Below, in pieces: positions 14,801 to 49,657 of a stretch of DNA of 64,000 nt. This stretch comes from Candidatus Melainabacteria bacterium (GTDB lineage Bacteria; Cyanobacteriota; Vampirovibrionia; Obscuribacterales; Obscuribacteraceae): contig CAWKBA010000008.1 of assembly GCA_963847765.1 (NCBI GenBank), forward strand, positions 10,643 to 74,642. The letters run 5' to 3'. Position 1 is the stretch's first letter, and each line of letters starts with the position of its first letter. A program made the position numbers and the translations under genes. The notes under the pieces were generated by a model, which saw only the letters and a program-made list of their open reading frames with translations, was not told where the DNA came from and made no database searches.

Positions 14801-14845
14801 AATAACCTAATATGCAATCGACCCCTCAGTCCGTGGTCATCCACT

Positions 14846-31171: not shown

Positions 31172-31177
31172 AGTAAG

Positions 31178-32023
31178 TTACACCTCAAAAGTAGTCATTC
31201 TGATCAAGATATAGGCACCTATAAATTCCCAACCTATTAAAACAAAGAGGATGACCCGCGCTACCGGATGATTAAGAAACGGAATAATATATCCAGGAGA
31301 AATTGCATAAGTCATAAGGATTATGGCATATGGTATGGAACCAATAAATATAGCCGTCATTTTCCCCTGCGCTGTTAGAGCATTCATATAGTCACGCAAT
31401 TTGAAACGCTCTCTTATTGAATCGGCAATTGTAGCTACAACATCAGCTAAATTACCACCGACGTCCTGACTGATAAAAATAGCCTGGGACAGTAATTTAA
31501 AATCGGGGGTATTAATTCTGGCAGCCATTTCGTGCATGGCGTCTCTAAATGCTTTTCCCAACTGCAAAGAAACAAGCCCTCGCTTAAATTCCGAACGTAT
31601 GGGATCAGTGCCTGTTTCAGCCAACACTTTGAAAACTTCTATAACGGGCGACCCTGCTCTGAGCGCACTAACCATGGTTTCCAGAGTCTGGGGCAGCTGT
31701 TCCATAATCTTACTTTGCCGTTTTGTGGCTAGCTGCCCTATATAAGCAATAAAACCACCCGCTCCTAAAAACAATCCGGCAACAAATGCAATCACATTCA
31801 GCTCAGGCACATAGAATAATGCTAATCCGGCCAAAACAACTCCAGTGATAAGAGAAGTAACTATCCATTGTACCTTCATCTCATTATATTTAGCCTCAAG
31901 ACCAGCCTGAGCTAATTTTTGGGCAAGATAATTCTCATGCCGAGTGGTTAGAAAAATATTCACATCTTCCTGATCGTGATATTTCAGCTTCATTTTTTTT
32001 CGATGCTGATTCAAACGAAGCAT
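31178..32023 (-). CDS. tadB: Tad pilus platform protein TadB (T2SSF domain)
   Basis: 281 aa with the T2SSF core (LPQTLETMVSALRAGSPV), placed after cpaF. Confidence 0.8.
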   Translation of the reverse strand: MLRLNQHRKKMKLKYHDQEDVNIFLTTRHENYLAQKLAQAGLEAKYNEMKVQWIVTSLITGVVLAGLALFYVPELNVIAFVAGLFLGAGGFIAYIGQLATKRQSKIMEQLPQTLETMVSALRAGSPVIEVFKVLAETGTDPIRSEFKRGLVSLQLGKAFRDAMHEMAARINTPDFKLLSQAIFISQDVGGNLADVVATIADSIRERFKLRDYMNALTAQGKMTAIFIGSIPYAIILMTYAISPGYIIPFLNHPVARVILFVLIGWEFIGAYILIRMTTFEV

Positions 32024-32167
32024 TTCATCGGACCAGGCCCGCGAACAAACTTAAGCGTGACCACCCCCGCTAGAATAACAACGACAAAAATTGATATTGC
32101 AATGCTTTCCATAAGCTACATGCTACTATACATCAGCCTCAAAGACCCGGATAAACCCACCGCCTTT

Positions 32168-33820
32168 TTATCTAAGCCATTCCAGTTTGAACGGCACAGA
32201 CTCTTGTTCGAGCTGTTCTAGGAATTTTGGCGGCAATCCAGAGCCAACATGGCGACATTTGAAAAATCCGCGCGCGTCTCTGCCCTCTCTTTCCAAATGG
32301 AATAGGGAGCTGATGGCAATGGTTTCACCTTCCATACCGGTTATTTCACAAATTTCCGTTACTCTCCTTGTACCATCTTCCAGACGGCGGATTTGCACAA
32401 TAACTTGAATTGCCGAGGCAATTAACTCGCGTGCTGCTTTGGCCGGCATATCCATACCAGCCATAAGAATCATATTCTCCAGACGTTTTGTGCAATCTCG
32501 CGGCGTGTTGGCGTGAATAGTCGTCATAGAACCCGAGTGACCAGTGTTCATTGCCTGCAACATATCAAATGCCTCTTCACCCCGGCATTCTCCCATAATA
32601 ATCCTATCCGGTCTCATCCGTAGTGTGTTAACTACAAGCATGCGTTGTGTTATCTGCCCTTTGCCTTCGGTGTTAGCCGGCCTTGTTTCCATCCTCACCC
32701 AGTGATCGTGTTGCAAGCGCAGTTCAGCTGCGTCTTCGATTGTAATAATGCGTTCACGTGGATTAATGTGAGCAGAAAGAGCATTTAACAGAGTTGTTTT
32801 ACCGGAGCCGGTACCACCGGATATGATTAAATTGATGCGCCCCTTAACGCATGATTTGAGCACTTCCGCCATCTGTACAGACATAGCTCCTTTTTCTACG
32901 AGCTGTCCAAGAGACATGGCATTGGCGCCGAAACATCGTATCGTGATCGTCGGACCATCGATTGTCACTGGTGGAATAGTGGCATTAACACGTGAACCAT
33001 TGGGTAAGCGAGCATCAACCATTGGCGAGTTATCATCTAATCTTCTTCCTAGCGGTTGAATAATTTTATCGATTGTCTGGCGTAAATGTCTTTCATTTTC
33101 AAAAGCTACAGCCGTCTTCTCCAGCCTGCCATGACGTTCAACATAGATATTATTCACACCATTAACACAAATATCTCCAATACTGGGATCGCGTAAAAGT
33201 GGTCCTAAAGGGCCAAAGCCAAAGACTTCGTCCAAAATATTTTGCAGCAGTATACCCTTTTCCATCATGGTTAAAGGGGCTGGATCCGAATTGACAATTT
33301 CACGTATGCGGGCACGCACCTGGGCTTGCGTATCTTCAGAAATATTGGTTAACCTTGAAGTATCAAGCTCACGGCGCAGTTGATCAATAATGAATTTTTC
33401 ACGCTCTCTGATAAGCTGCTGGTTAGCGGAAAACTTGGCTCCCATATCTCCACTAACAGCTGCGTTTTCTGCTGCACCACCATGCCCATAGTTAGCGTCT
33501 TCTTTTGCATCAATGCGTTCTATCTCGGCTCGGCTTGGTCCCATGCCAGCTTCCACGGCAGACCCACCTGGACGGCTGGCACCACCAGCAATACCAGTAG
33601 CCGTTCCACCGGGTCTCTGCATGCCACTTTGTCCAGGCGGTGGCGCTGCTGTTTTACCGCCAACACCTGTAGAACCTTGCTGCCCAGATAATCCTGTTGC
33701 TTGCTGTTGGGCCGGCACGACATCTGCACCCTGTCTTTGCCTGACTAATTGCCCCATCAACGATGAGGCGGGTCTTGCCGGCAAATTCTGGTCTTTTCTT
33801 TCCTCACCCATAAAACTCAA
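32168..33820 (-). CDS. cpaF: Tad pilus secretion ATPase CpaF/TadA with about 110-aa low-complexity N-terminal extension
   Basis: Walker [12 protein letters not shown], Asp box [10 protein letters not shown], Walker B and His box (IIMGECRG...[14 protein letters not shown]). The N-terminus is G/A/P/Q-rich. Confidence 0.9.
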
Positions 33821-33837
33821 TCACCATCCTTAAACCT

Positions 33838-33863
33838 GTAGGGGCGGGGCTTGTCTCCGCCCG
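33838..33863 (+). repeat. GTAGGGGC hairpin element (cpaE-cpaF intergenic)
   Basis: gtaggggcggggcttgtctccgcccg has the stem GGGCGG/CCGCCC. Confidence 0.8.
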
Positions 33864-33878
33864 TGTTCTCACCCGCCG

Positions 33879-35069
33879 TCATCGTTTGAAGAACGCCGGC
33901 AATTTGAAACCTTTAGCCTTTTCAGTAGTAGTATTATCTTTTTGTTGTGTAATAAGAAGCTGTTCGCCTCCGGCTAATCTTCTTGCCAGCGAGTCAAGTG
34001 ATTTCCCCAGAGCCGATTGCGTGGGAGAAATTTGCCCTTGATTATTCGCCCATTTTGCTGTTTTGGCATCATTAGGTACTTCATGAAAAATCGGATAATT
34101 TAAACTGGCACGGCATTCACTCAAAACGTCCTGCGGCTGCCACTCAGAGCGATTAATTATCAGAAGTAGCTTTTCCTGATTGTAATGCGCCTTAAACGTA
34201 TCCAGGCATTTGCGCGCATTAACAATCGCCGCCCAGTTGTATTCTGTAATAACCAGCACCTGATCTGCCAGATCTAAGGTGGCTATGGCTCGTTCATCTA
34301 ACAAGTTTTTGGGCAGATCGACAAGAGTAAAGCGAAATTCCTGCTTGGCCGTATAAAGAATTTCCTGAACCTGAGCAGCATAAATATCACCAATGTCTTC
34401 CAGATCCGGCGGGGCAGCAAGAACACTCAATTTTTCATCATATCTGGTCATTAAGTTGCGCAAATAAGTGGCATCAAAGTTAGTATGTGAAAAATCAATC
34501 GTGCTCAAACTGAAAGATGGTTCCAGGTTTAAATACTGAGAAACCATGCCGAATTGCAAATCGAGATCGACAATACAAGTTTCACCGTATTTGCCCAGAT
34601 AACCAGCCAAGTTTGTGCAAATTGTAGTGGCACCAATACCACCAGTAGGGCTAAAAATTGCAATTACCTTGCCGGCAGCAGTTGATATCGATTCACTTTG
34701 ATGCTTAAGTTGAATACTCTGCACCGCAGCAGGTAAATCAGTCCGCCACCGCTCAGCATCAAGGAAATCAGACGCCCCTAATCTATAGGCTGTTCTAATC
34801 AATTCCGGATCAGGCACTTCATAACTGACAAAGAAATAAACATCAGGAAAGGTTTCTCTTAATTCAGCCAGCAGTGACAGCCCCCGTACCGGCGCCGGAC
34901 TCAGTTCAATCCAAACCAGTTTAGGGTGCAGACTGCCTATTTGCTCTCGGGCCATACTGCCAGATACCGTACTAACCAGGGCTAACGAAGGCTGGCTATG
35001 AATCAGATCTTCTATGGTCTGGCGCTTATCCAAACCAGCATCACAAATTAACACTGTAGTCAGTTTCAT
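33879..35069 (-). CDS. cpaE: TadZ/CpaE-type pilus assembly protein (atypical receiver plus ParA/MinD-like ATPase fold)
   Basis: The N-terminus is receiver-like, followed by a deviant P-loop (IAIFSPTGGIGATT). Confidence 0.75.
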   Translation of the reverse strand: MKLTTVLICDAGLDKRQTIEDLIHSQPSLALVSTVSGSMAREQIGSLHPKLVWIELSPAPVRGLSLLAELRETFPDVYFFVSYEVPDPELIRTAYRLGASDFLDAERWRTDLPAAVQSIQLKHQSESISTAAGKVIAIFSPTGGIGATTICTNLAGYLGKYGETCIVDLDLQFGMVSQYLNLEPSFSLSTIDFSHTNFDATYLRNLMTRYDEKLSVLAAPPDLEDIGDIYAAQVQEILYTAKQEFRFTLVDLPKNLLDERAIATLDLADQVLVITEYNWAAIVNARKCLDTFKAHYNQEKLLLIINRSEWQPQDVLSECRASLNYPIFHEVPNDAKTAKWANNQGQISPTQSALGKSLDSLARRLAGGEQLLITQQKDNTTTEKAKGFKLPAFFKR

Positions 35070-35133
35070 ATTTTAATAGCCTTAATTCTCCCCAGCTATA
35101 GAATTTGTACCCAGCCTGCCGTAGATGAATCGT

Positions 35134-36081
35134 CTACCCGCTGGGCACAGAGACTACATCTTTGGCGCTGCCTTTCCAGACTTCTATTTCATGCATAGGA
35201 GGAGGCGGTGGAGCTGCCGGAGCCATAGCTCCTGGCATTCCTGCTCCCATATCGGGACCACCAGGCAATGGTGGTGGTGGTAGTGAACTTGGTGGAGGCA
35301 GGGCGGCTATATCATCGCCTTTACCACCTCCAGCAAACATAGAAGTAACATCCACAGTAGCCACCGGCTTGCGGTCCTTATCATTTCTCAAGGTCAGATA
35401 AAGTTTGCTGGCGCTGATGGCCTTAATTAATTTATTGGCATCTTCAGGGCTCACACAAACAGTTACAGAACTAGAAGGAATGGCTGTAGATTGCCCAGGA
35501 TTTTTCTGATAAAGCTGCCCAACAGCAATTACTTCCACGTCTGATAATATTGGTGCTGCTTTTGTTTCAGCCCCGGCACCGACCATAGCAATAATATCTA
35601 CACGGCTATCCGGATTAACAAAACCAGCAACTCCAGAATTATTGTCCACACCAAAGGTTAGAGCTCGCATACCTTCTTTAAGTTTGGCTTCAAAGCCCAG
35701 TGAAATACCTTGTGGAGCCAGATCATGCTGGGAAACTATCTGTCCGGCCAGAATGCCGTATTTAGCAATCCGTCCAGTAGCCAAGCTGGCGGAAGTAATA
35801 GCGTCTTGTGGTATTTTGCTTTGTTCAATTTCCCTTTCTTCTAAAGCTTCGCTTGGTATAGCTTGTCCTTCAGGTATATCTTTAATTGTATAAACGACTT
35901 TGCCCTTGGCATTAGCTTTTTGCTCCAGTTCAGCTTTGCGTGCTTCGTAGGTCTTGGTTTGCTCCGAAATAATTCCAGTGACCCCCATAGCAATAACACC
36001 TGCCACGACAACAATAATTACTAAAAGCAGCGCAATCGGTATTCTGGAAAGCTGCAATATTAGCGCCTGTAATGGATTCAT
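35134..36081 (-). CDS. cpaB: Flp pilus assembly protein CpaB/RcpC with Pro-rich C-terminal tail
   Basis: N-terminal TM, SAF-like and RcpC-like regions. The tail is LPPPSSLPPPPLPGGPDMGAGMPGAMAPAAPPPPP. Confidence 0.75.
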   Translation of the reverse strand: MNPLQALILQLSRIPIALLLVIIVVVAGVIAMGVTGIISEQTKTYEARKAELEQKANAKGKVVYTIKDIPEGQAIPSEALEEREIEQSKIPQDAITSASLATGRIAKYGILAGQIVSQHDLAPQGISLGFEAKLKEGMRALTFGVDNNSGVAGFVNPDSRVDIIAMVGAGAETKAAPILSDVEVIAVGQLYQKNPGQSTAIPSSSVTVCVSPEDANKLIKAISASKLYLTLRNDKDRKPVATVDVTSMFAGGGKGDDIAALPPPSSLPPPPLPGGPDMGAGMPGAMAPAAPPPPPMHEIEVWKGSAKDVVSVPSG

Positions 36082-36420: not shown

Positions 36421-36597
36421 CTATTGTGAGCCCTTGGTTATAGAACTTAATTGTCCTATGACTGAAGAAAACGCATTCTGTATAGATGTACTAAAGGACC
36501 CTTGCAAGCTAAAGATAATACTAATAACCAGAGCTATGAAAGCTAGAATGGCTCCATATTCAGTAATACCCTGTCCGGATTCATCAAAAAAAAGCAT
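36421..36597 (-). CDS. flp: Flp-family type IVb pilin (copy 1)
   Basis: The Flp motif is ESGQGITEYGAILAFIALVISIIF. An RBS-supported ATG at 36617 is out of frame unless the A8 run at 36586..36593 has one more base. Confidence 0.8.
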   Translation of the reverse strand: MLFFDESGQGITEYGAILAFIALVISIIFSLQGSFSTSIQNAFSSVIGQLSSITKGSQ

Positions 36598-36907
36598 TTT
36601 GCTAAGCCGGTAATCATAACAATCTCCTGAAATAATCATAACTAGATCACACAAGCCGGTCTAATTATCAAGGGCTACTTTTATGCGGAGAATTAAAAGG
36701 CAGTCTTTTAACGAGAACTACTCTGGTAAAAATTTAACAAAAGAGCAATTAGAACCTAAATAGCCTTAGCTTCATTATATATAATTGCCTGGAAAGCTCT
36801 ATATTTCTTAAATATTCTCTTTCCGTATGTTATTGCCGCACAGCACTACGTTCAGATCAAGCATTTTGATAAAAGCCTGATTGATGAAATAGTTAAACTG
36901 TTAAACC

Positions 36908-37125
36908 AAAGCCTGTTCTGAGCTTACGAGCCGCCGGCTATAGAATTTAACTGTCCGCCGACCGAAGAAAACGCATTTTGCAATGCAGCTTGGAACGACC
37001 CCTGCAAACCAAAGATAATGGCAATAATAAGCGCTACGAAAGCCAGAATGGCTCCGTACTCAGTAATGCCCTGTCCAGACTCATTAGTAAAAAAGTGTTT
37101 TAAGTTAATAAGCATAACAACCTCC
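36908..37125 (-). repeat. Left arm of 218-bp inverted repeat (contains flp copy 2 with RBS and 3' flank)
   Basis: Its reverse complement matches 38868..39085 with about 11 mismatches by my hand alignment. Confidence 0.9.
36924..37115 (-). CDS. flp: Flp-family type IVb pilin (copy 2)
   Basis: MLINLKHFFTNESGQGITEYGAILAFVALIIAIIFGLQGSF..., with AGGAGG 6 nt upstream of the ATG. Confidence 0.85.
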   Translation of the reverse strand: MLINLKHFFTNESGQGITEYGAILAFVALIIAIIFGLQGSFQAALQNAFSSVGGQLNSIAGGS

Positions 37126-37350
37126 TGAAAAACACCAATAGCTAGACTAAACAATTCAGCCTAATTATCAAGGGCTACTTTTATTTGAGAATTTAATAGC
37201 TGTCTTTTAATGAGGACAACTCTAGTAAAGATTAAACAAAAAATCAATATAGAACCTTATAGCCCTAGTTTTATTATATATAGCCTTGCTTGAAAAGTTT
37301 TCTTTTTTAAACATTTCCTTTTCGTATCTTATTGCTATACATTGCCCGGT

Positions 37351-38598
37351 TCAGGACAGGCTTTTTGATAGAAGCTTTGGCTGGCATATGATTTTCAGCA
37401 CCCGAGAATACGCCCATATTACAGTTGTTGTTAAAAATAATGGCTGAGCTAAATTATGCATGAACAGGACAATCAATATATATAAGTCAACCAAAAACCA
37501 TAACAGCAATAATTCGCGCCTGAGGCTTTGATTAGATTTCAAAACAGGATTTTCAAAAACAATCATACCGGCAATAGCAAAAATACTAAGATCGTAATAG
37601 CGCAAATATGGCAAAATCAACGGCAAAATCAGTATGCCAAGCACAAAGATCAAGGACATAACACCGGTATTGTTCATAGGCATTCTTTTAACTAGCTGCC
37701 GGCAAAAAAATAGAGCCTGCAAGAATATGATCATTGCCAGCAAGTAAATCACAAAATCAAGTGCTGGCTGCCAGTGAGCCGGGAAAAGCGTTGTGATCGC
37801 CTCATGCAATGAGCTAATTAGAAATGTCTTGTGCTGGCAAGTAGGATCTCGCCAAATTTCAGCATCCAGTTTTAGAGAAGACAACCATTTATTGGCTACA
37901 ACCGGTCCAAAACAAAAAATACTGCTGAGGCTTACAACAAGCATTCCAACAATGAAACTGGCTAAACAGCTCAATTTTTTTGACCTGGTGAAAGCAGCAA
38001 TAAAGAAAACAGGTACGGCTATAAATTGAGGTTTGAGCAATAACAAAGACCAAGCCAGCCCAGCTTTAACAGGCTTTTCTTTAGCATAGTAATAATAACC
38101 AAGGGCCAGAGGCAGACAAAGAATTATCAGACCAATCTGTCCGATAAATAAAGTGTGGATGATAGGCAAATAGAGAAGGCTGTCCCAAAAATAGGCTAAA
38201 TAGTTTCCACCATTTAACGAGGCCATAAGTGCTGAACATAATAAAAGAGCTAACAAGGAAAGCACCTGCCAAACTATAAATGCCGTTTGTGGCGATAAAT
38301 GGCTAAAAGGCTCAAACAAAAGTGCAATTAAAGGCGGGTATTGAAAAAATGGTTTTGCATTTGCTGCCAGGTGCGGCAAGATTTGGTGAGCGCAACGATC
38401 AAATGGTGCTTGAGCAAACGATGTTTGGTTTTGATCCGGATAAAGGTCGGTAGTTTTACCTTCTTTGACCATACAACCAGCAACATAAAAGGCTGCCAGG
38501 AAATCTGTTTGCTGGTTAACGTCAGCACAGGCAAAAGCACCACAGGTAACAAAAACCAGGAGTAAGACAGCGATTATTCTTAAAACAATACTTTTCAT
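37351..38598 (-). CDS. GT87/DUF2029-like polytopic glycosyltransferase (GT-C fold)
   Basis: 415 aa with many TM helices. The N-terminal pattern DFLAAFYVAGCMVKEGKTTDLY...FFQYPPLIALLFEPF is typical of DUF2029. Confidence 0.6.
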   Translation of the reverse strand: MKSIVLRIIAVLLLVFVTCGAFACADVNQQTDFLAAFYVAGCMVKEGKTTDLYPDQNQTSFAQAPFDRCAHQILPHLAANAKPFFQYPPLIALLFEPFSHLSPQTAFIVWQVLSLLALLLCSALMASLNGGNYLAYFWDSLLYLPIIHTLFIGQIGLIILCLPLALGYYYYAKEKPVKAGLAWSLLLLKPQFIAVPVFFIAAFTRSKKLSCLASFIVGMLVVSLSSIFCFGPVVANKWLSSLKLDAEIWRDPTCQHKTFLISSLHEAITTLFPAHWQPALDFVIYLLAMIIFLQALFFCRQLVKRMPMNNTGVMSLIFVLGILILPLILPYLRYYDLSIFAIAGMIVFENPVLKSNQSLRRELLLLWFLVDLYILIVLFMHNLAQPLFLTTTVIWAYSRVLKIICQPKLLSKSLS

Positions 38599-38867
38599 TT
38601 TTTTGGCAACAACAACTGAATTATTAAATTCAAGACATTAAATTCTCGAAAATCACCTTGGCAATTTCAACTTGGCTAAGATAGAATGAAAATAACTGTA
38701 TTCATTTAACTAGAAATAGTTGGCTGGATTCAGCTTTTGAAAATTAGCTTCTTTACTATAATTACTACCTTAGTTTTTCAAAGTTCTACGGCTTCTTAAT
38801 TGCTAAATTGACATTACACCTTAACAGTTAATGTTGTTTAGTGAAAATAAGATATAAATGGGGGATC

Positions 38868-39085
38868 GGGAGGTTGCTATGTTTACTAACTTAAAGCACT
38901 TTTTTACTAATGAGTCTGGACAGGGCATTACTGAGTACGGAGCCATTCTGGCTTTCGTAGCACTTATTATTGCCATTGTCTTTGGTTTAAAGGGGTCGTT
39001 CCAAGCTGCATTGCAAAATGCGTTTTCTTCGGTCGGCGCTCAATTAAATTCTATAGCCGGCGGCTCGTAAGCTCAGAACAGGCTT
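38868..39085 (+). repeat. Right arm of 218-bp inverted repeat (contains flp copy 3)
   Basis: See the left arm. The identity extends 15 nt past the stop codon (taagctcagaacaggcttt). Confidence 0.9.
38879..39070 (+). CDS. flp: Flp-family type IVb pilin (copy 3)
   Basis: MFTNLKHFFTNESGQGITEYGAILAFVALIIAIVFGLKGSF..., with GGGAGG upstream of the ATG. Confidence 0.85.
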   Translation: MFTNLKHFFTNESGQGITEYGAILAFVALIIAIVFGLKGSFQAALQNAFSSVGAQLNSIAGGS

Positions 39086-39129
39086 TTTAAGAATTACTGT
39101 TTGACACTTGGTCAATCAGAGGGGGGGAT

Positions 39130-40626
39130 TTATTGTTTCATTGACCGGTGATGAACAATAATTTCCGCTTGCTCATTTTTAAAAGCTACCTGCCAGGCAG
39201 CATCTTTTTCAAGATACTGGCATAGCCTGGTCGCGGGAGAGAGAAAAATCCAATTAATTTTGTACTTGATTAGCAATTCTCGCCAGGTGGGATTACAGTC
39301 AGCAATTGCTAAATAATCCCGTACGGTTTGCTGGGAGTAGATATCAAAGCGCGTATCAATAAAGAGCTTGACTGGGTTTTTTCCATTCCACATAAGCACA
39401 TCGCCAAATTCAGGATCATTAAAAAGATTCCCTGATGGGTTATGCACAGCGATATAATCCAGGGCTTGAAACGGCGGTACAAAGACTCTAGAGATTGCCG
39501 GAATAGTCGGATGGCTGAACAGCAGCATACTCAAACTGCCTGCTATTGCTGATAGCACGATCAGGGCATGTATATTCTTTTGTTTAGTTCCAGCCGGTGT
39601 CTCGGTTTTGATGTGAAACCCACTGCCAATCAACGGCAGCATTAATAGCAAACCAAAGGTAATGAGACGTTGAAAAAGTATTCCTAAAACCATGCCTACT
39701 ATGGCGATGAGCATATAAATAAAATCACTTCCTGTTAATGCCGGTCGAAACCCGCGCCTAATGCGAAACAAGGCTAATAATGAAAGACCGCCAAAAGAAC
39801 AAAGTAGTGGCAGATTATGACTGGCTAGAGTTGTCGTGAATGGCTGCAGTTCACCTATGTAGCGATTAGCCGGGTGAAAATAAAGATGTGGTATGTACTG
39901 CCAGAGTAAAATACCATATGGCGTTATCAATGAGGCCAATAGACAAAAAACAAAACTGATCGACCAGGTGGTCAGCAAAGCCCGACGGTTGCCACACAAA
40001 TCTCTGAGGCTTAACACAAGCAAAAGCAAGATGCCGATTACAAAACCACTATGCAGGTTGGCCCAGAGAACCATTATTACCGCCAGGACAGTCGCCAGTT
40101 TCCAATTTATCCTATGAGAATCTGTTCTCATTTCCTGCCTGACGACAATCTCAAGGTACACAGCTAAAAATAAATAGGAGAATATTTCCGGCTTTAGCAA
40201 CATGCGTTCAATAGAACCAAGGGCAACACCAATTGTAATCAGTCCGGCACGTAATGACCCTAACTTAAAACATTCCAGTATGCGCCAGGGCATAATGATC
40301 AGAGAATATACAAGTATGCTGCAGGCAAAAGTCACCAATCCCATCGTTCCAGCAACTGTGATTATTGCAAAGAAAATAACTTCCGTTAGCCATTGATAAA
40401 CGACCAGTCCTTGAGGAGCAGAATACATAGCAAAAGTGTATGAAAAGGGATCAGTAACCGGCAACATCTTATGCTGGCAAATCCAGCGCCCCATAGACAG
40501 GAGAAAACATGTGTCCGGCTCGCGAAGTGAAAAAGCCGCTACGCCTATACCGTAAATGAAAGCTAATGATATAGTTACCAGTATGGCAATAGCAAAATTT
40601 CTTTTAGGCATCGCCCATACTTCCAA
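39130..40626 (-). CDS. Large polytopic membrane protein, GT-C-like putative glycosyltransferase
   Basis: 498 aa with more than 10 TM helices. It is a paralog of the divergent neighbour, sharing LLSMGRWI...DPFS near the N-terminus and DPEFGDVLMW...IDTRFDIYS near the C-terminus. Confidence 0.5.
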   Translation of the reverse strand: MEVWAMPKRNFAIAILVTISLAFIYGIGVAAFSLREPDTCFLLSMGRWICQHKMLPVTDPFSYTFAMYSAPQGLVVYQWLTEVIFFAIITVAGTMGLVTFACSILVYSLIIMPWRILECFKLGSLRAGLITIGVALGSIERMLLKPEIFSYLFLAVYLEIVVRQEMRTDSHRINWKLATVLAVIMVLWANLHSGFVIGILLLLVLSLRDLCGNRRALLTTWSISFVFCLLASLITPYGILLWQYIPHLYFHPANRYIGELQPFTTTLASHNLPLLCSFGGLSLLALFRIRRGFRPALTGSDFIYMLIAIVGMVLGILFQRLITFGLLLMLPLIGSGFHIKTETPAGTKQKNIHALIVLSAIAGSLSMLLFSHPTIPAISRVFVPPFQALDYIAVHNPSGNLFNDPEFGDVLMWNGKNPVKLFIDTRFDIYSQQTVRDYLAIADCNPTWRELLIKYKINWIFLSPATRLCQYLEKDAAWQVAFKNEQAEIIVHHRSMKQ

Positions 40627-40684
40627 AAGGTAATTGATCCCATCTCTTCATCAAATATAACGGTTAACTGTCAATCTGCCAACT

Positions 40685-42130
40685 ATGCAAGCTGATCAAA
40701 TCAGCCAAAGAGATAAACTGTGTCTGCAAATCAGCTTGCTGTTTTTTTTGCTGACACTTATTTATTTTGGCATGACGATATGCCGGCTTTGTCTCTGTCA
40801 ACGAGATATATACTACCTGCTCTCCATGGGACGATGGATTATCGAACAAGGCGGGTTGCCGCAAACAGATCCCTTTTCCTGGACATATTCTGTTTATCCA
40901 AACGGCTGCCCGTTTGTAGTGCATCAATGGCTGACTGATATCATCTTTTTCGCTGCGCTAAAAATGCTTCGTGCCAATAGTCTGGTACTGATTACGGCAA
41001 CAACTCTATGTCTGAGTTTTCTTATCCTGATTCTTCAGACAATGAAGCTTTTGCGCCTTGGTCAGACAGTGACTCTTTGCCTTTTATCGCTTTCTTTACT
41101 TGCTGCAACCGCACATCTGCAGGTACGCCCGGAAATTTTTTCCTATGTTTTTATTTCACTCTACTATTTTATTTTGCTCAAAGCGGATCATATGGGCAAA
41201 TTAACGACAGAAAGCCTGATCATTCTCACCTTGAGCATGATCCTCTGGTGTAATCTGCATAGCGGGTTTGTGGCTGGACTGATTATTATCTGCTTTTGGT
41301 TATTATTTTCTCTTATCGATCAGATCGTGTTTCACAAATCAACATTGAACAATAGCTATTTTTTTGCACTGCCGCTCTGTTTTACAGCCACATTGATTAA
41401 CCCGGTTGGTTGTAATTTATGGTTATATCTTCCTGCCCTATATTTTTCACCAATAAGTCATTATATAGACGAATGGCGGCACATTGATTTAAGTTTCTTC
41501 CGCTATGACCCATTCTACGCGCTGCTAATTTTAATAACTATTTTTGCTCTTCTTGCCCACAGAATTGTTAGCACCGGCAAATTAAAAGATACAGGATTGA
41601 AACCCATTGCCCTTGGTGCGATAGCAATTGTAATTAGCTTTTGTGTTTGCCGCTTTATGAATATTGCCTCTATGTCTTTGATTATAGCCATAGCCATGCT
41701 CTTGAATAAATTAAACCAGGCAAAAAATCAAAATGAAAATTCACCGCCGCAGTCTCCTTCATACGTTTATAGTCTATCTTTTGGCATATCAAGCACTTTC
41801 ATTGTTCTTGCCACCACCATAATTATCATGGATAGATTTCCAGCTAAGATTGCCGTTAATTACGACGAATTTTCCATGCCTGTTGGTGCAATCGATTTTC
41901 TAAAACAGCATCCGCAGAAAGGGCGACTTTTAAACGATCCTGAAAATGGTGATGTTCTTGTGTGGTATTTGCAACCTTGCCCTAAAATTTTTGTTGACTC
42001 GCGTTTTGATTTATACAGTCCCGCCATGTTAGATAAATACTTTAAATTAATAGCGTGTAATGCCGGCTGGCAAGATGATTTGCAGTCATTCAATATTGAC
42101 TGGCTTTTTGTAGGACTGGTTATCCGATAA
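40685..42130 (+). CDS. Large polytopic membrane protein, GT-C-like putative glycosyltransferase (paralog)
   Basis: 481 aa with LLSMGRWIIEQGGLPQTDPFS and DPENGDVLVW...VDSRFDLYS. Confidence 0.5.
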   Translation: MQADQISQRDKLCLQISLLFFLLTLIYFGMTICRLCLCQRDIYYLLSMGRWIIEQGGLPQTDPFSWTYSVYPNGCPFVVHQWLTDIIFFAALKMLRANSLVLITATTLCLSFLILILQTMKLLRLGQTVTLCLLSLSLLAATAHLQVRPEIFSYVFISLYYFILLKADHMGKLTTESLIILTLSMILWCNLHSGFVAGLIIICFWLLFSLIDQIVFHKSTLNNSYFFALPLCFTATLINPVGCNLWLYLPALYFSPISHYIDEWRHIDLSFFRYDPFYALLILITIFALLAHRIVSTGKLKDTGLKPIALGAIAIVISFCVCRFMNIASMSLIIAIAMLLNKLNQAKNQNENSPPQSPSYVYSLSFGISSTFIVLATTIIIMDRFPAKIAVNYDEFSMPVGAIDFLKQHPQKGRLLNDPENGDVLVWYLQPCPKIFVDSRFDLYSPAMLDKYFKLIACNAGWQDDLQSFNIDWLFVGLVIR

Positions 42131-42279
42131 TCAATGCTCTTTCTAAAGATCCCGGCTGGACTACTCTGTATTCTGACTATACGGCAGTGATTATGAGGAG
42201 AACAAACCGTCATCAATAACCTATACTCAACGCACAGGAAGATTTTGATACCCTTAACGAGGAAAGTAATTGATTCACA

Positions 42280-43215
42280 ATGCCAAAGCTTAAAATCTGG
42301 TTTGTTTCGCCTTGCTTTTTTGATGTGGAGTCATTCAAAGAGTTAAGAAAGCGCTGCTTAGATATGGTTCATAAATCTCTGCCGGAACTGGAGCCAAAGT
42401 TTGTCGTAATTGATGATTCTGGCGGACAAGATAGTCAAGCGATCGGATTAAGTGATGAGCCATCAACTACTGTTCTTGTGCCGCCTTATAACATTGGGCA
42501 CCAAAGCGCGATTGTTTTTGCCTTGCGGTCGATTTTGCCGGATATAGATCCAATGGACTATATCGTTACTCTTGATTGTGATGGAGAAGATAAGCCGGAA
42601 GATATTCCATCGTTGATAGAACCACTTTTTACTAAGCCAGATGATGTATACGCAGTTGCGCTTGCTCAAAGAACAAAAAGAAGCGAAACACTCAAATTTA
42701 AAACACTCTACTTCTTTTTCAAAATTTTCTTTTCTATATTGACTGGTACCAATATAAAGAACGGCAATCTCGCAGCATTTAGAGGACAATTTATAAATGG
42801 TGTCATTTTTCATCCTTACTTTGATTACTGTTATTCTTCCTCTTTGGTTGCTCTGCCTTTGAAAAGAAAAAATATTTCAATAGCCCGCGGCTCCAGATAT
42901 TTTGGCAAAAGTAAAATGACTTTGATCAGCCTGATTGGACATGGTTTCAGAATGCTCTTGCCATTTTCAGAACGGATTGCAATTAGAGGGATCATTCTTT
43001 CTGGCGGTTTGTTATTGCTAAGCACTGCCGGCTTGCTGTTTACCATAGTCTTGTGTAAAGTTCACCAGTACCCTCGTGATTGGCTTATTACAATTGAAGT
43101 TCTATCCTGTTTTTTCAGTATTTTTCTATTTATAATTTCCTTTATCTTTTTGCTACATTTCATCAAACCAGAGCTATCAGCCTGCGCAACTGGACTGGTT
43201 CTTCTTCGGGGGTAG
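42280..43215 (+). CDS. GT2 polyprenyl-phosphate glycosyltransferase, GtrB/DPM1-like, with two C-terminal TM helices
   Basis: VVIDDSGGQD, the DxD context TLDCDGEDKPEDIPSLI, and two C-terminal hydrophobic helices. Confidence 0.75.
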   Translation: MPKLKIWFVSPCFFDVESFKELRKRCLDMVHKSLPELEPKFVVIDDSGGQDSQAIGLSDEPSTTVLVPPYNIGHQSAIVFALRSILPDIDPMDYIVTLDCDGEDKPEDIPSLIEPLFTKPDDVYAVALAQRTKRSETLKFKTLYFFFKIFFSILTGTNIKNGNLAAFRGQFINGVIFHPYFDYCYSSSLVALPLKRKNISIARGSRYFGKSKMTLISLIGHGFRMLLPFSERIAIRGIILSGGLLLLSTAGLLFTIVLCKVHQYPRDWLITIEVLSCFFSIFLFIISFIFLLHFIKPELSACATGLVLLRG

Positions 43216-43288
43216 GTTTTAAATCTCGGTAGAGTTTATATGTGCTTGAAAACATCCACAGAAAGGCAGGCTCTAAACGAAGCTCAAT

Positions 43289-45493
43289 ATGCTAATGTTC
43301 TATTATGGTGCCTGTGTCCCTGCCCAAACATTTTCAGTGATTATCCACAATCAGATGAATGCAGAAATTGAATCGATCGAGTCTCTAAACAAAATCCGCT
43401 TTCGTCTATTGCTTTTCAGCGTGCTTTCTCTATATATGGAGATGATGGTCATTCGTTATCTTGGCACAGAGATAACGATATTTTCGTATTTTAAGAACCT
43501 TTCGCTCATGTCCGCATTCTTAGGATTAAGTCTGGGATTTTTGTTTGCCAACAGCAATCGTGACTATTTCAAATGGTCTGGAATTGCCTTTCTGTTTCTC
43601 AATGGAATTATAGCCACTGCACTGATGCTCCATATCACCTTTTTGAGCTTTACCAACCCGTTTGAGTTCATGCTCTTCGGCGTCGGCGGTGTGAAAGAAC
43701 ATGTGCCGAGCCTAGTTGCCAGCACCGGCACGTTGTTGATTATGCTGTCCCTGTATTCACTCAGCGCTTTTTCCTTTATCGGACTCGGTCAGCGCATGGG
43801 ACAGCTCTTTTCCAAGCTTCCAGCCCTTCAGGCTTATTCCATTAACATTGCCGGCTCATTGTTGGGAACAGCTATATTCGCGCTGTTAAGTTTACTGGAA
43901 ACCTCCCCAGGAATCTGGATGCTGATTGCTGGAATCCTTTTTATTTTGGTGCAAAGAAAACCGGCACATTTTGCGATCATTGCACTGGCAATCGTCTATA
44001 TGTGCTGGCTTTCACCATGGATCACTCGCAAATTCTATGGTGATAACTATGTTAAAACTCTTTGGTCTCCTTACTATCGCATCGATCTCGTCCAATCCAG
44101 GGAAGGACTGAAGCCGCCCCTGCATTGGGGTTGGCATTTAATGGTGAATTACGACGCCTTCCAAACACTCTTGGACTGTTCGCCGAAGAACCTGGCTACA
44201 TTACCTCAAAACGCGCAAAAAGTTATGTTGCAGCTGTATAGTACGCCTTATTTGCTGGAAAAAGCAGTGCCCAAGAAAGTTTTGATTTTGGCGCCGGGAA
44301 ACGGCAGCGATGTAGCGGGAGCAATTAGATCCGGAGTAGAGAGCATTGATGCCGTTGATATAGATCCAGTGATTACCAGACTGGGCAAAACACTTCACCC
44401 TGAAAAACCATATCTTGCTCCCAATGTGTCCCTGCACGTGATGGATGCACGTACCTTTCTTAGAACTTGCACTAAGAAATACGATCTGATTGTTTTTGCC
44501 TATCTGGACAGCCATACTGCTTATTCTTGTTTCTCATCGCTTCGCACCGACAATTACATTTTCACCAAAGAAGCTTATGCGGAAGCAAATAAATTATTAA
44601 ACAAAAACGGGAAAATTTATGTTAGCTTCATTTGCTTTAAGGATTATCTCTGGGACAGGCACTGCAAAGAACTAGCAGCTGCGACCGGGACGAAACCGCT
44701 TGGCTATCGTACTTTTAACGGCAATGTTAATATCGGCTACCTTATTGCGGGTCCCGGCACAAAGGGTAAAAGCGAGGCTGATTACAATATGCCCTATCCA
44801 AAGTTTCCCGTCAATCTGAATAGTTCTGTAGCACTCGCAGAAGACGACTGGCCATTTCTATTTCTTCCTGACCGTGAACTGTCTCTTACCTATATGATTC
44901 CATTATTCTGCGTAATGATGCTTTCCTTGCTTGCGGTCATCCGGCCAATTCAGTCAGGTCTTAAGAGCAAGCTAAACTGGCAAATGCTCATGCTCGGAAT
45001 GGGTTTTATGTTGCTTGAGGTTAGAGCCATGGCCGATCTCTCATTGCTCTTTGGCTCAACCTGGTTTGTCAACGTTTTTGTGATCTCGGGCATTCTTCTC
45101 GTAATTCTTCTAGGAAACTGGTTAGCTTCCAGATTAAGCGTTAGCTATATCATTCCACTCATTATTGGCTTATGCTTCTGTCTTTTACTATCGACATTCG
45201 TGCGGGCTAGCGATCTCACCATATATGGTGAATCGCTTGGACGGGCTCTGGGAATTATATTTTATATTTTCCCTGTTACTTTTGCTGCAGCTGTTTTCGC
45301 CATAATTTTCAAACAATCAAAAATCGCCAGCAGTGCATTGGCGTTCAACCTACTGGGCGGCTTAATTGGCGTGTCTCTTGAATATACGTCGATGTGGCTT
45401 GGTGTGCGCGCCCTGGGCTGGATTGCCATTGCCATTTATATATTGCTGCTTGCCACTTTCATGAACAAGCGCCCTATTCCCAGATTACATTAA
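43289..45493 (+). CDS. Spermidine synthase-like (SAM/aminopropyl transferase fold) domain embedded in a polytopic membrane protein
   Basis: 734 aa. N- and C-terminal TM bundles flank VLILAPGNGSDVAGAI...IDAVDIDPVI...MDARTFL...YDLIVFAYLDSH. The start is uncertain. Confidence 0.65.
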   Translation: MLMFYYGACVPAQTFSVIIHNQMNAEIESIESLNKIRFRLLLFSVLSLYMEMMVIRYLGTEITIFSYFKNLSLMSAFLGLSLGFLFANSNRDYFKWSGIAFLFLNGIIATALMLHITFLSFTNPFEFMLFGVGGVKEHVPSLVASTGTLLIMLSLYSLSAFSFIGLGQRMGQLFSKLPALQAYSINIAGSLLGTAIFALLSLLETSPGIWMLIAGILFILVQRKPAHFAIIALAIVYMCWLSPWITRKFYGDNYVKTLWSPYYRIDLVQSREGLKPPLHWGWHLMVNYDAFQTLLDCSPKNLATLPQNAQKVMLQLYSTPYLLEKAVPKKVLILAPGNGSDVAGAIRSGVESIDAVDIDPVITRLGKTLHPEKPYLAPNVSLHVMDARTFLRTCTKKYDLIVFAYLDSHTAYSCFSSLRTDNYIFTKEAYAEANKLLNKNGKIYVSFICFKDYLWDRHCKELAAATGTKPLGYRTFNGNVNIGYLIAGPGTKGKSEADYNMPYPKFPVNLNSSVALAEDDWPFLFLPDRELSLTYMIPLFCVMMLSLLAVIRPIQSGLKSKLNWQMLMLGMGFMLLEVRAMADLSLLFGSTWFVNVFVISGILLVILLGNWLASRLSVSYIIPLIIGLCFCLLLSTFVRASDLTIYGESLGRALGIIFYIFPVTFAAAVFAIIFKQSKIASSALAFNLLGGLIGVSLEYTSMWLGVRALGWIAIAIYILLLATFMNKRPIPRLH

Positions 45494-45526
45494 GTCCTCA
45501 ACGGACGTATAGACGCGTCGCTTCCG

Positions 45527-45548
45527 CCGCCTCCTCGGCGCCGTTCAC
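45527..45548 (+). repeat. CTCCTCG-GTTC intergenic core motif copy
   Basis: ccgcctcctcggcgccgttcac lies between the convergent gene ends at 45493 and 45560. Confidence 0.5.
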
Positions 45549-45559
45549 TCTGCTATACT

Positions 45560-47169
45560 TTATTCCCACTCGATAGTGGCGGGTGGTTTGGAGGTAATGT
45601 CATAAACAACACGATTGATGCCGGGTACTTCATTGACAATGCGAGAAGAAATGACCGCTAATAAATCAAAGGGCAGCCGTGCCCAATCAGCCGTCATGCC
45701 ATCTTCAGAAGTAACGGCTCGGATAACAATTTGATTTTGATAAGTACGTTGATCGCCCATTACACCCACTGATTTGGTTGGCAAAAGCACAGCCAAAAAT
45801 TTGCCAGACTTTTCTATATAGACCATGGGACTTTGATTTCTTCGCGAATAATCCAGTCAGCTTCACGCAAAATTTTAAGTCGTTCTTTAGTCACTTCGCC
45901 AAGTACTCGAATAGCCAGTCCTGGCCCTGGAAAAGGATGCCTCTCGCGAATGCCCTCCGGCACGTCTAATTCTTTGGCAACTCGGCGCACTTCGTCTTTA
46001 AATAATTTGGCAAAAGGCTCAACCAATTTAAATTTCAAATCTTCCGGCAAGCCGCCGACATTGTGATGCGATTTGATTTTTACTGCCACCCGTTCACCGG
46101 TTTTAGGATCGATTTGCGTGCCTGCCGATTCAATAACATCAGGATAGAGGGTGCCCTGGGCAAGATAATCAAACGGTCCTAGTTTTTTTGATTCTTCCTC
46201 AAATACACGAATGAATTCAGCACCAATGTTTTTTCGTTTTTCTTCCGGATCGGTAACACCTGCCAGTTTAGCAAGAAAGCGATCTCTGGCTTTTACAAAA
46301 TGTACTTGAATTTTAAAATCACGTTCAAAAGTTTCCACCAGCCATTCCGGCTCATTTTTGCGCATAAAGCCTTGATCGATAAACATACAGGTAAGCTGAT
46401 CGCCTATGGCTTTATGCAATAAAAATGCCAAAGTCGAACTGTCTACGCCACCAGACAGAGCCAATAGCACCCGTTTTTTCCCTACTTTCTGGCGCACCGC
46501 CGCTATGGTTTGATCAATAAATTTTTTCATTGTCCAATTGCCGCGACTGCCGCAAATGTCGACAACAAAATTACTGATTATTTTCTGTCCCCCTTCGGTG
46601 TGGGCCACTTCCGGATGAAATTGCACACCATAAAAATTGCGCTCCTCATCAGCAATTGCCGCTACCGGCGTTGCTGCAGTGCTGCCAATGACATCAAAGC
46701 CTGGCGGAAGAACAGAGGCGCTATCACCATGGCTCATCCAAATTTGCATACTTGCTTCTAGACCAGCAAATAATTTACCGTGCCGAAGGACTGTAAGAAC
46801 AGCTCGTCCATATTCTCTAACTTCAGCCGGTATAACTTCACCGCTGAGATCTCTTGCCATTAACTGCATGCCATAACATATGCCCAGCACCGGCACACCC
46901 AGTTTCCAAATTTGCGGATCAACCTGTGGTGCCCCGGGCTCATAGACGCTGTTAGGTCCGCCGGACAAAATAATCCCCTTTACTTTCAATTCACGCAGCC
47001 TGTCCGCCTTAGTGTCGTAAGGCAAAAGCTCTGAATATGTATTAACTTCTCTAACTCTTCTGGCAATGAGTTGCGAGTACTGGGCCCCAAAATCAAGAAT
47101 GGCTATAGTATCGGCCGCTATTGCCTGAGAGGGGCTCACCTCAGACAATTTATCTTCTTTTTGAATCAT
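45560..47169 (-). CDS. guaA: GMP synthase (glutamine-hydrolysing), one homopolymer frameshift as sequenced
   Basis: The GATase motifs are GICYGMQ and HPEV; the ATP-PPase motif is SGGVDSS; the C-terminus is [12 protein letters not shown]...KPPATIEWE. The frames join if the T3 run at 45832..45834 has one more base. Confidence 0.9.
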
Positions 47170-47386: not shown

Positions 47387-49657
47387 GTGAGAAAATATCA
47401 GCCCAGAATGTTAAAGAAGCAGAGCAAGATTAAACTGCCCTGGAATGAAATTCGGTTCGTATTCATTTTAGCCTTTTGTTTTCTTTGTGCTGGCTGCGCA
47501 GGCAATAAAGTAACACCAGAAATTAGTTCTCAGGAGCCGGCAGACTTAAGCCCGTTACCGCCGCAACTGCAAGTTGAGCCCCTTTCTTTTGATTATCTTT
47601 TGCAATCCTATGACTTTCTTAATGACAAAAATAGAATTATTGCCCTAAAGCATTTCCTGGCTCAAAACAATCTCGACGACAGGCAAAAAGCAGAAGCTGC
47701 TTATATGCTAGCCAGGCTCATTCAGCAATCAGCTGATGCTGCCCAGGGGCAGGCGCTGCAACTTTTTGATCAAGCTCAGACTTATCCTCCTCTAAAAATA
47801 AAGTCTCTATGGCATAAAAGTGAGATTGCCGCAATACTGGGCAAAGAAAAACTGGTTCGCCAGGTTTTAGCAACTTTGCTGCCCGAATTAAAAGATCAAA
47901 CCAGCATAGCTGCCGCTCAATATTCACTGGCTCAATCATATGTAAGAGCTGGTGAAATTGACAATGCCATCCGCTTACTAAAACAAATCAGGGTTGATTT
48001 TCCCGGCACAGACTATGCCATTGGCGCAGGCTATTATCTTGGCACCCTGTCTCCCCAAAATGCCCGCGCTTATTATTTTGAATATTTGCAAGCCAGTCCC
48101 AACGGGCATTTCACCGCCGACATTCTCCTCAAACTGGAAAAGCTCGCCAGACCAAATATTTTGCCATTCAAAGAAAGCGAGCTGGTTGCAATGGCGAATG
48201 CTTACTCAGCTATTGGTGAATATAAATCAAGTCTTGCCTGCTGGCAAAAAGCCGGCACCAATAAACACTTGCTGCCGGTTGCCAGCTGTTTGCTTAGGTT
48301 GGGACAAATCAGGCCAGCTCAAGAAAAATTTTTTGAGAGTCTGGCGGAACAGGCGGATGAGCCGGGCGGGAGCGGGCGCATGCAATGCGCCCCTACCGAA
48401 TTAGCTAACGAAATCAGCTCACGTTTAAAACATGCCGACTCTATTCGCTTCTGGCAAAAACTACGAGGCTTTAAAGGTGCCTTTCAAGATAAAGTTCTCT
48501 GGAATCTTGCTATAAGGAGCAATTTCACTGATGCTCTTCGTTATTATCAAGACCTTATCACTCATTACCCGGATTCGACGTTTGCACCAGAAGCACAGTG
48601 GGTTTTGTTATGGCACAAATTTAAATCTACAAAAACCATATGGCTGCCAGCTTTATCTGAACTTTTCCATAAAGCAGCAATTAAATATAATCAGTGTTCA
48701 TTGACTCCACGATTTTTATTTTGGGCCGGAAAAACATTAGAAAAAGGCGGCAACAAACAAAGGGCGTGCTCTTATTTCAAGCAGGTCTCAAGCCAGTTTC
48801 CTTATAGTTATTACGGGCAAAGAGCTGCATTTCGTCTTAATTCACTGATCAGCTCCTCCCCAGACATTTATTTCAAGCTTCAATATTCCGGAGTTAAAAA
48901 TAATACTGATCTTCCCTGGAATTGGCCGCCACCGGAAAAATCACTTAAAGACCTGGGTAACCCGACTCTTGGTGAACTTATATATATAAAGCAATACCAG
49001 GAGGCATTGCTTGAGGGCGATAAGCTTTCAGCTAAGCTTGTCTCCTGGTTGCAGGCAATGAATGGGCAGCCCTGGTTGGCAATTAACACCGCTTATGCAT
49101 GCCTACAAGATAAGTCTTGTTCCTCGTCCGACAGCCAGATACTTCGGCAATATTCTTTCCCTTTGCTATACAATCGGGATATATCTTGTTATTGTCGCAA
49201 CAGTGGTCTGGACGATCCTGTGCTGGTGCAGGCGCTTATACGTGAAGAGTCACGTTATAATCCGCAAGCAGTAAGTTCAGCACATGCGCTTGGGCTGTGC
49301 CAGCTGATGCCTGCCACCGCCAGCAGTATTGCAGTCGGATATGGTATTAAACTTAAGAATAAAGATCAGCTTTTTCAGCCGCAAATTAATATGCGGTTGG
49401 GCATTTCTTATTTGTCGTCCGCATTGCATATTTTCAATAATGAACCATTGCTGGCTGTTGCCGGTTATAATGCCGGTATTAATGCTGTGAAAAGTTTCAC
49501 TGTAGGGGCTCGTTGCACGAGCCCGCTTCACAAAGCGCGCTCAATTGCAGATCCGGATCAGTTTGTAGAAGATTTTCCTTTTTCAGAAACACGAGATTAT
49601 ATACGTAAAGTCTTCAGCAGCCGCTGGTCTTACGACAAGATTTATGAGCATCAATAA
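47387..49657 (+). CDS. slt: Soluble lytic murein transglycosylase (Slt70-like: superhelical N-domain plus SLT catalytic domain)
   Basis: 756 aa with a GTG start and a lipobox-like LCAGC. The catalytic region is LIREESRYNPQAVSSAHALGLCQLMPATA...AGYNAG. Confidence 0.8.
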   Translation: MRKYQPRMLKKQSKIKLPWNEIRFVFILAFCFLCAGCAGNKVTPEISSQEPADLSPLPPQLQVEPLSFDYLLQSYDFLNDKNRIIALKHFLAQNNLDDRQKAEAAYMLARLIQQSADAAQGQALQLFDQAQTYPPLKIKSLWHKSEIAAILGKEKLVRQVLATLLPELKDQTSIAAAQYSLAQSYVRAGEIDNAIRLLKQIRVDFPGTDYAIGAGYYLGTLSPQNARAYYFEYLQASPNGHFTADILLKLEKLARPNILPFKESELVAMANAYSAIGEYKSSLACWQKAGTNKHLLPVASCLLRLGQIRPAQEKFFESLAEQADEPGGSGRMQCAPTELANEISSRLKHADSIRFWQKLRGFKGAFQDKVLWNLAIRSNFTDALRYYQDLITHYPDSTFAPEAQWVLLWHKFKSTKTIWLPALSELFHKAAIKYNQCSLTPRFLFWAGKTLEKGGNKQRACSYFKQVSSQFPYSYYGQRAAFRLNSLISSSPDIYFKLQYSGVKNNTDLPWNWPPPEKSLKDLGNPTLGELIYIKQYQEALLEGDKLSAKLVSWLQAMNGQPWLAINTAYACLQDKSCSSSDSQILRQYSFPLLYNRDISCYCRNSGLDDPVLVQALIREESRYNPQAVSSAHALGLCQLMPATASSIAVGYGIKLKNKDQLFQPQINMRLGISYLSSALHIFNNEPLLAVAGYNAGINAVKSFTVGARCTSPLHKARSIADPDQFVEDFPFSETRDYIRKVFSSRWSYDKIYEHQ
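48372..48396 (-). repeat. GTAGGGGC hairpin element, TTGCA-loop subtype, in frame in slt
   Basis: gcgggcgcatgcaatgcgcccctac has the stem GGGCGCA/TGCGCCC. It is translated within SGRMQCAPTE. Confidence 0.8.
49502..49526 (+). repeat. GTAGGGGC hairpin element, TTGCA-loop subtype, in frame in the slt catalytic domain
   Basis: gtaggggctcgttgcacgagcccgc has the stem GGGCTCG/CGAGCCC. It is translated as VGARCTSPL. Confidence 0.8.

Follow-up and report, generated by a model that had tools for sequence, protein, structure and literature searches.

Does a group of glycosyltransferase genes that lies among the genes of a pilus serve to modify its pilins, or does it owe that position to rearrangement? 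The question is raised by a 64,000-nt stretch of DNA (hereafter, the window) from a Candidatus Melainabacteria bacterium of the order Obscuribacterales. Its segment at positions 37351-45493 encodes, interleaved with and following three flp pilin genes, a GT87-family glycosyltransferase (GT) of the GT-C type, two large membrane proteins (p1 and p2), a family 2 glycosyltransferase (GT2) and a membrane protein resembling spermidine synthase (SpeE-like). A preliminary description had read this as a lipid-linked glycosylation island dedicated to the Flp pilins, with another envelope acceptor as its own stated alternative. The lipid-linked, periplasmic enzymology is supported by the analysis reported here; the dedication to Flp is not, and the module is probably not devoted to this pilin. 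With moderate confidence, we regard the segment as a periplasmic module that uses a polyprenyl-phosphate-linked sugar, whose acceptor is likely to be an envelope glycoconjugate and whose closeness to flp arose by rearrangement. A polyprenyl-phosphate-sugar synthase combined with GT-C transferases is a textbook type of module.

Enzymes encoded in the segment

All five open reading frames (ORFs) of the preliminary description, as well as the flp genes, were recovered from the ORF list at the same coordinates, and its inventory of families held throughout: a GT87/DUF2029-like GT-C enzyme, two large paralogous membrane proteins rightly called GT-C-like, a GtrB/DPM1-like GT2 with a DxD motif and two C-terminal transmembrane (TM) helices, and a membrane-embedded spermidine-synthase-like protein. 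The evidence for each is as follows.

The proteins p1 (39130..40611, minus strand) and p2 (40685..42219, plus strand) are paralogues (29% identity over 464 aa, E 7e-61). Neither has a match in Pfam, NCBIfam or the PDB sequences, and the 60-member profile of p1 likewise finds none in the PDB; a Pfam scan of 60 family members returned single-member matches only (best E 0.0018) and no STT3. The AlphaFold2 (AF2) model of p1, built from a 60-sequence alignment, has a predicted local distance difference test (pLDDT) score of 94 and a predicted template modelling (pTM) score of 0.93, and every Foldseek match to it in the PDB at E ≤ 0.003 is a GT-C enzyme (STT3, DPY19, AglB, PglB, ArnT, AftB), the best being STT3 (E 2.7e-7, TM-score 0.58-0.62). 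The first-loop acidic motif for which the preliminary description had suggested looking is present: D33, directly after the first TM helix (EPD; family consensus DPD), is found in at least 90% of the 60 members, D54 (DPFSY), in the same loop, is invariant in 26 closer members, and both occur in p2. Further conserved residues of the family are R140-P-E, W183-x-N-x-H187, R315 and D419-x-R421. Judged from the structural model, p1 and p2 are GT-C_A-fold enzymes of a large family that has no name in the libraries used. Their putative use of a polyprenyl-phosphate sugar donor is suggested by one observation, the adjacent gene for the GT2 donor synthase.

A complete HMMER scan served to size this family: of 1.84 billion cluster representatives (50% identity), 44,428 matched at E ≤ 1e-3 and 21,328 at E ≤ 1e-30. 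A homologue search yielded 83 proteins, nearly all from metagenome-assembled genomes (MAGs) of Obscuribacterales/'Melainabacteria'; their source names all read 'hypothetical protein' bar one TPR label, and precomputed Pfam domains were present in two TPR-bearing entries only. Genomes can carry several members of the family: at least 16 genomes occur two or more times, and L003 has three copies in 12 kb (loci other than the window are given by such handles). Both gene models needed adjustment. The true start of p1 is probably at 40611 (against 40626 in the ORF list), giving a protein of 493 aa that is identical to P0001. The 3' part of p2 contains a frameshift, located at a T5 run near 42105-42115: the C-terminal motif of the family (YPIINALSKDPGWTTLYSDYTAVIMRR...) resumes in another frame and continues to 42219, past the stop at 42130 that ends the assembled ORF, and the break is either an assembly error or a true truncation of ~35 aa.

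The gene at 37351..38598 (minus strand) has a Pfam GT87 match of 68.7 bits (E 8.3e-19; cut-off 25) that covers all 237 positions of the profile; phmmer found no PDB chain for its product at E ≤ 1, and hence no match to PimE. The GT2 (42280..43215, plus strand) matches PF00535 (E 7.8e-8), and its translation shows a DCD motif and two C-terminal hydrophobic (TM) helices. It aligns end to end with ArnC structures (9hwj_A, E 1.9e-8, residues 2-285 to 6-281), with a score against the ArnC equivalog PRK10714 of NCBIfam (E 1.6e-9, 37.2 bits) that is far under the cut-off of 529. By these sequence comparisons, it has an ArnC-like architecture but is not an ArnC orthologue; its close homologues are named 'polyisoprenyl-phosphate glycosyltransferase' by JGI.

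The SpeE-like protein (43289..45493, plus strand; 734 aa) matches PF01564. In its AF2 model (pLDDT 87), central residues ~252-485 take the aminopropyltransferase fold (Foldseek TM-score ~0.6 to SpeE structures), with helical TM bundles on either side. Its score against the NCBIfam speE model is 35 bits, the cut-off being 249.55, and the probable counterpart of the SpeE 'DSxDP' motif reads D405-S-H-T-A in its family. Homologues are 45-60% identical across Obscuribacterales and 36-38% identical in distant ones, one of which is labelled Verrucomicrobiae. The gene contexts vary, with and without glycosyltransferases, and are unrelated to the present one in L170 and L171; these inconsistent settings make its membership of the module doubtful, and we regard the protein, which is conserved across the order, as a probable bystander.

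Gene neighbourhoods and the origin of the arrangement

Linkage between the enzymes and flp was followed in both directions. In the forward direction, 79 loci of the GT-C family were gathered with a 26-sequence alignment from species-representative genomes (nearly all Obscuribacterales, often two or three loci per genome), and 10 kb on either side was searched with the window proteins. The most frequent neighbour within this distance was guaA, at 38 of the 79 loci, followed by GT87 (8), SLT (7) and flp (4), with tadA, GT2 and the SpeE-like protein at two loci each. The usual order is SLT ... guaA and then the GT-C gene directly, often with GT87 across guaA (L017, L024, L078, L079), and p1 is the orthologue of this guaA-adjacent GT-C found across Obscuribacterales. 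The same conserved SLT-guaA-GT-C neighbourhood is represented in the window by guaA (GMP synthase; 45563..47169, minus strand, assigned by homology and frameshifted) and a TPR-SLT lytic transglycosylase recognized by Pfam (47387..49657, plus strand).

In the reverse direction, 80 metagenome loci anchored on RcpC were collected, ~15 of which extend at least 5 kb upstream. Among these ~15, the combination of GT2, GT-C and GT87 occurs once, in L161, in the same arrangement as in L032. A few others have a lone GT-C or GT87 gene 6-8 kb off, L121 has GT87 0.5 kb from flp, and the remainder have no glycosyltransferase. L087 and L090 (TadZ 94-95% identical), the closest relatives for which all 10 kb upstream is available, read SLT-guaA-(HTTM)-DUF362-SQHop-like-flp-tad, with no glycosyltransferase beside flp within that distance. 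Orthologues of the GT2 are missing from almost all related loci. Linkage to flp is confined to one sublineage, comprising the window, L172, L074 and L007; orthologues of p2 (57-67% identical) adjoin flp in L074 and L172.

An island dedicated to Flp is not what these counts describe (guaA at 38 of 79 loci, flp at four, tadA at two), nor what L087 and L090 contain, and adjacency to flp, the co-occurrence on which the preliminary description would have had its reading judged, is not conserved in relatives. Largely, the comparison returned what that description had named as speaking against it, namely an unrelated pathway with no linkage to flp in relatives; yet flp adjacency does occur in L172 and L074.

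The window has three flp genes, which share the processing motif ESGQG/ITEYG (the slash marking the processing site), have a mature length of 47-48 aa and are adjoined by rcpC-tadZ-tadA-tadB-tadC: flp2 (36421..36597, minus strand), flp1 (36924..37115, minus strand; MLINLKHFFTNESGQG/ITEYG...SIAGGS) and flp3 (38879..39070, plus strand), a near-identical inverted copy of flp1. Their scores against Pfam Flp_Fap are 17-20 bits (19.6 for flp2), below the cut-off of 32.2. Together with their flanks, flp1 and flp3 form a 221-nt inverted repeat, 95% identical between its left arm (36908..37128) and its right arm (38866..39086), around a 1.7-kb segment with the GT87 gene; flp1 and flp2 are tandem 500-nt units. 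If the two arms recombined, the orientation of GT87 with respect to the tad operon would be reversed. L007, L074, L088, L090 and L172 have divergent flp pairs as well.

A second feature sets the window apart. In ~25 loci (L087:6641-8645, L090:6175-8271, L007:14435-16425 and ~22 others), the majority of Obscuribacterales tad loci, the conserved neighbour immediately upstream of flp is a divergent gene pair encoding a DUF362 protein and an SQHop_cyclase-like protein that resembles the C-terminal domain of squalene-hopene cyclase. This pair, which may be an unrecognized accessory of tad loci, is absent from the whole window. Beyond this, the interval from guaA to flp differs in every related genome examined: it holds p1, GT87 and then four unrelated genes in L007; a SpeE-like paralogue, p2, p1 and then a divergent flp pair, without GT87, in L172; p2 only, 85 nt downstream of two same-strand flp genes, in L074; the SQHop-like gene only, with a frameshifted GT-C beyond guaA, in L088; and no glycosyltransferase in L087 and L090.

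Because the DUF362/SQHop pair is absent and the inverted flp duplication brackets GT87, we take the interleaving of flp and GT87 to be a derived, recent and local product. The GT-C genes would stem from the old SLT-guaA-GT-C neighbourhood of Obscuribacterales, which in this lineage adjoins the tad locus; the window genome would have lost the DUF362/SQHop-like pair by which this neighbourhood is normally kept apart from flp, and duplication of flp in inverted orientation, with rearrangement in the variable region, would have left GT87 bracketed. The 'embedded' look that had been taken for meaningful linkage is thus traced to an inverted flp repeat and local rearrangement.

The tad operon itself (30242..36081, minus strand) was delineated by Pfam matches to RcpC, AAA_31/CbiA, T2SSE and, twice, T2SSF, and comprises rcpC/cpaB (35134..36081), tadZ (33879..35069), tadA (32168..33820), tadB (31178..32023) and tadC (30242..31171). 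No secretin (RcpA/CpaC) and no TadV prepilin peptidase were found by Pfam among the checked ORFs flanking these genes, in the part of the window that was scanned. A DUF192 (COG1430) gene lies immediately downstream of tadC at 29833-30204. Locus L088, in which RcpC is 83% and TadZ 94% identical to the proteins of the window tad locus, is on a contig labelled human oral metagenome. The start of flp2 is ambiguous: an in-frame ATG gives a 10-aa leader (MLFFDESGQG/ITEYG...) and an alternative in-frame ATG a 24-aa leader, and the ancestral start at ~36617, which aligns with the start and ribosome-binding site of flp1, is out of frame owing to a T8 run; this could reflect an assembly error, a pseudogene or slipped-strand phase variation.

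A similar break splits guaA near 45796-45832, with GuaA of a relative aligning in one frame over residues 1-446 and in another over 458-535, and many such breaks are present in L074 and L172, which suggests long-read homopolymer errors in these MAGs. G+C content is 0.38-0.40 in the stretch with flp, GT87, p2 and GT2 (36001-44000) and 0.44-0.46 in the flanking tad, guaA and SLT genes; the low value is not counted as evidence of horizontal transfer, because the codon content of membrane proteins could explain it. A scan for promoters and terminators at 36000-45900 gave the same counts as shuffled sequence and is uninformative on operon structure.

Comparison with characterized systems

Several known pathways share parts of this enzymology. 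The Arn pathway (ArnB, ArnA, ArnC and ArnT) modifies lipid A with aminoarabinose. The closest relatives of the GT2, by sequence and by structure, are ArnC proteins, the fold of p1 is matched by ArnT among others, and the relative L032 has a DegT aminotransferase, a dehydratase/epimerase and a GNAT protein beside its GT2 and GT-C genes. However, the GT2 scores 37 against a required 529 bits, the window has no homologues of ArnA, ArnB or ArnD, and neither p1 nor p2 resembles ArnT in sequence. PimE and Rv2181 are mycobacterial GT87 mannosyltransferases that depend on polyprenyl-phosphate mannose. The product of 37351..38598 is a clear member of the same Pfam family, and here, as there, a donor synthase (Ppm1-like or GtrB-like) is encoded nearby; by contrast, the host is a diderm member of Obscuribacterales with no known phosphatidylinositol mannosides or lipoarabinomannan.

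AglB glycosylates archaeal pilins and archaellins. Together with STT3 and PglB it gives the best structural matches of p1 (TM-score 0.53-0.62, query-normalized; E down to 3e-7), whereas p1 has neither an STT3 match in Pfam nor a WWDYG motif, and its periplasmic domain is much smaller (~110 aa). AglB-like N-glycosylation of Flp was considered and ruled out: this STT3 or WWDYG signature is lacking, and the Flp proteins of the window contain no N-x-S/T sequon (NAF and NSI only).

TfpW is a pilin-linked GT-C enzyme that arabinosylates group IV PilA in Pseudomonas aeruginosa, where its adjacency to pilA defines the pilin allele group. The present segment resembles this system in that a pilin gene has a GT-C gene beside it and a polyprenyl-phosphate monosaccharide would serve as donor; it differs in that adjacency of the window type is not conserved (4 of 79 loci) and in that the pilin is a 47-aa Flp and not type IVa. 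A Wzy_C-type domain, as in TfpO/PilO and PglL, was not matched in Pfam by any of the five segment proteins. Glycosylation of pilins with arabinofuranose is mentioned in PMC11127046, which also describes the three-component Gtr system, made up of the flippase GtrA, the polyprenyl-phosphate-glucose synthase GtrB and a GT-C enzyme, Gtr*. As in Gtr, the window combines a GT2 bearing two C-terminal TM helices with GT-C enzymes expected to be periplasmic. Unlike Gtr, the segment has no flippase gene and three GT-C enzymes instead of one, the family of p1 and p2 has no Pfam model, and neither an O-antigen locus nor a prophage forms its context. Sll1696, whose gene lies downstream of pilA in Synechocystis and which has been implicated in glycosylation of PilA1 (PMC8546353), was rejected as a counterpart of a 500-aa GT-C enzyme: the ~1.8-kb pilA1-pilA2-sll1696 transcript implies too small a protein.

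Acceptor of the module

[quoted passage not shown] A flippase encoded outside the segment would then flip the lipid-linked sugar, which GT87, p1 and p2 would pass to an extracytoplasmic acceptor, an activity predicted from family membership and, for p1 and p2, from their fold and acidic residues. Two loci outside the window bear on what this acceptor might be. In L168 (Acidobacteria, 6250-16300), which has no tad genes, a GT9 heptosyltransferase, WecG, a GT-C member, a GT2, two unassigned proteins of ~545 aa, GT87, a second GT-C member and an ICMT-like methyltransferase lie together in what looks like a lipopolysaccharide (LPS)-type locus using this GT-C family. In L032:5437-9944 (and also in L161), an NAD-dependent dehydratase/epimerase, a DegT aminotransferase, a GT2 and a GNAT protein are encoded between two GT-C genes and GT87, 2.3 kb upstream of flp-tad; by analogy, this cassette would be an Arn-like route to a polyprenyl-phosphate aminosugar. 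The acceptors of characterized GT87 enzymes are lipid-anchored glycans. PimE is an example of such an enzyme (PMC12041525). The contexts of L168 and L032, together with these known acceptors, therefore favour an envelope glycoconjugate as the most likely acceptor; LPS, glycolipids and polysaccharides are examples of what this might be.

Several observations weigh against this assignment. The top fold matches of p1 are protein-modifying GT-C enzymes (STT3, DPY19, AglB and PglB), ahead of ArnT and AftB. Among 52 distinct mature Flp sequences from Obscuribacterales, 47 finish in Ser, typically in Ala/Ser-rich tails of the form ...QLNxLSSAAxxAS, a sequence type used by O-glycosylation systems. Two members of the window sublineage have GT-C genes directly beside flp: L172, and L074, where the gap is 85 nt and the GT-C gene shares its strand with two flp genes. 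In L121, GT87 sits 0.5 kb from flp. No flippase of the GtrA, SMR or MATE type is apparent, given that intergenic gaps at 36082-45562 are below ~340 nt and that the five proteins contain no such Pfam domain; the TM domains of the SpeE-like protein remain unplaced in this respect. The tests in this analysis pinpointed no acceptor.

Much of this would be expected if the segment were, for Tad pili, the analogue of TfpW, with the flp-adjacent enzymes p1 and p2, and possibly GT87, placing the polyprenyl-phosphate sugar made by the GT2 on Ser of the exposed, Ala/Ser/Gly-rich C-terminal tail of Flp. The GT87 gene does have an flp gene on either side and is transcribed in the same direction as flp1, flp2 and the tad operon, p1 and p2 both abut the divergent flp pair of L172, and L074 has flp-flp-p2 on one strand; the near GT87 of L121, the Ser-terminal tails (47 of 52) and the resemblance to protein glycosyltransferases point the same way. 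Flp1 of A. actinomycetemcomitans is glycosylated according to PMC6182317, which cites Inoue 2000, whereas the Tad pilin of Caulobacter shows no density for a modification (PMC10710030). We nevertheless consider such an island unlikely. Only four of the 79 GT-C loci have flp nearby and guaA accounts for the position of the GT-C gene; the Ser-terminal tail is kept irrespective of nearby glycosyltransferases (in the Flp ORFs of the window and of L007-L166), including L087, L090 and most tad loci, which have none adjacent; the arrangement is derived, through loss of the DUF362/SQHop pair and inverted duplication of flp; the genes for p2, the GT2 and the SpeE-like protein point away from flp; and LPS-type clusters that lack tad genes contain members of the GT-C family too.

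A broader role in protein O-glycosylation of the PMT/Ppm1 type, with many secreted or periplasmic substrates modified at Ala/Ser-rich segments and Flp at most one of them, would suit the fold, the tails of Flp and a family that is order-wide, multi-copy and tied to no single acceptor gene. This seems to us improbable: Pfam gives no PMT or STT3 match, a WWDYG-like motif is lacking, PMT structures are outside the top 50 fold matches, and the genes with which the family co-occurs (GT87, GT9, WecG and aminosugar genes) speak for a glycan or lipid as acceptor. We give similarly little credence to the absence of any functional unit, in which independent membrane enzymes with partners elsewhere would have gathered in the variable guaA-tad region. 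The content of this region does vary among the window, L172, L074, L007, L088, L087, L090 and L032, orthologues of the GT2 are missing from almost all related loci, the SpeE-like gene turns up in unrelated contexts and no flippase gene was found in the segment; but GT-C with GT87 (and in part GT2) recurs in the distant lineages L003, L032 and L168, and a donor synthase beside three donor-using enzymes is the arrangement expected of a module.

To our knowledge, no enzyme system for glycosylation of Tad/Flp pilins has been identified. If true, a role in modifying Flp would fill this gap, glycosylation of Flp1 having been reported without a known enzyme, and would give a function to a GT-C family of more than 20,000 cluster representatives; the comparative evidence makes it a minority hypothesis. 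The locus also carries a general caution, in that adjacency in one genome can arise by rearrangement of an old syntenic block. The most useful by-product of the analysis is the large unannotated GT-C_A family itself: recognizing it as such, with a set of invariant residues, opens a route to studying how envelopes are glycosylated in Obscuribacterales, Acidobacteria and other phyla.

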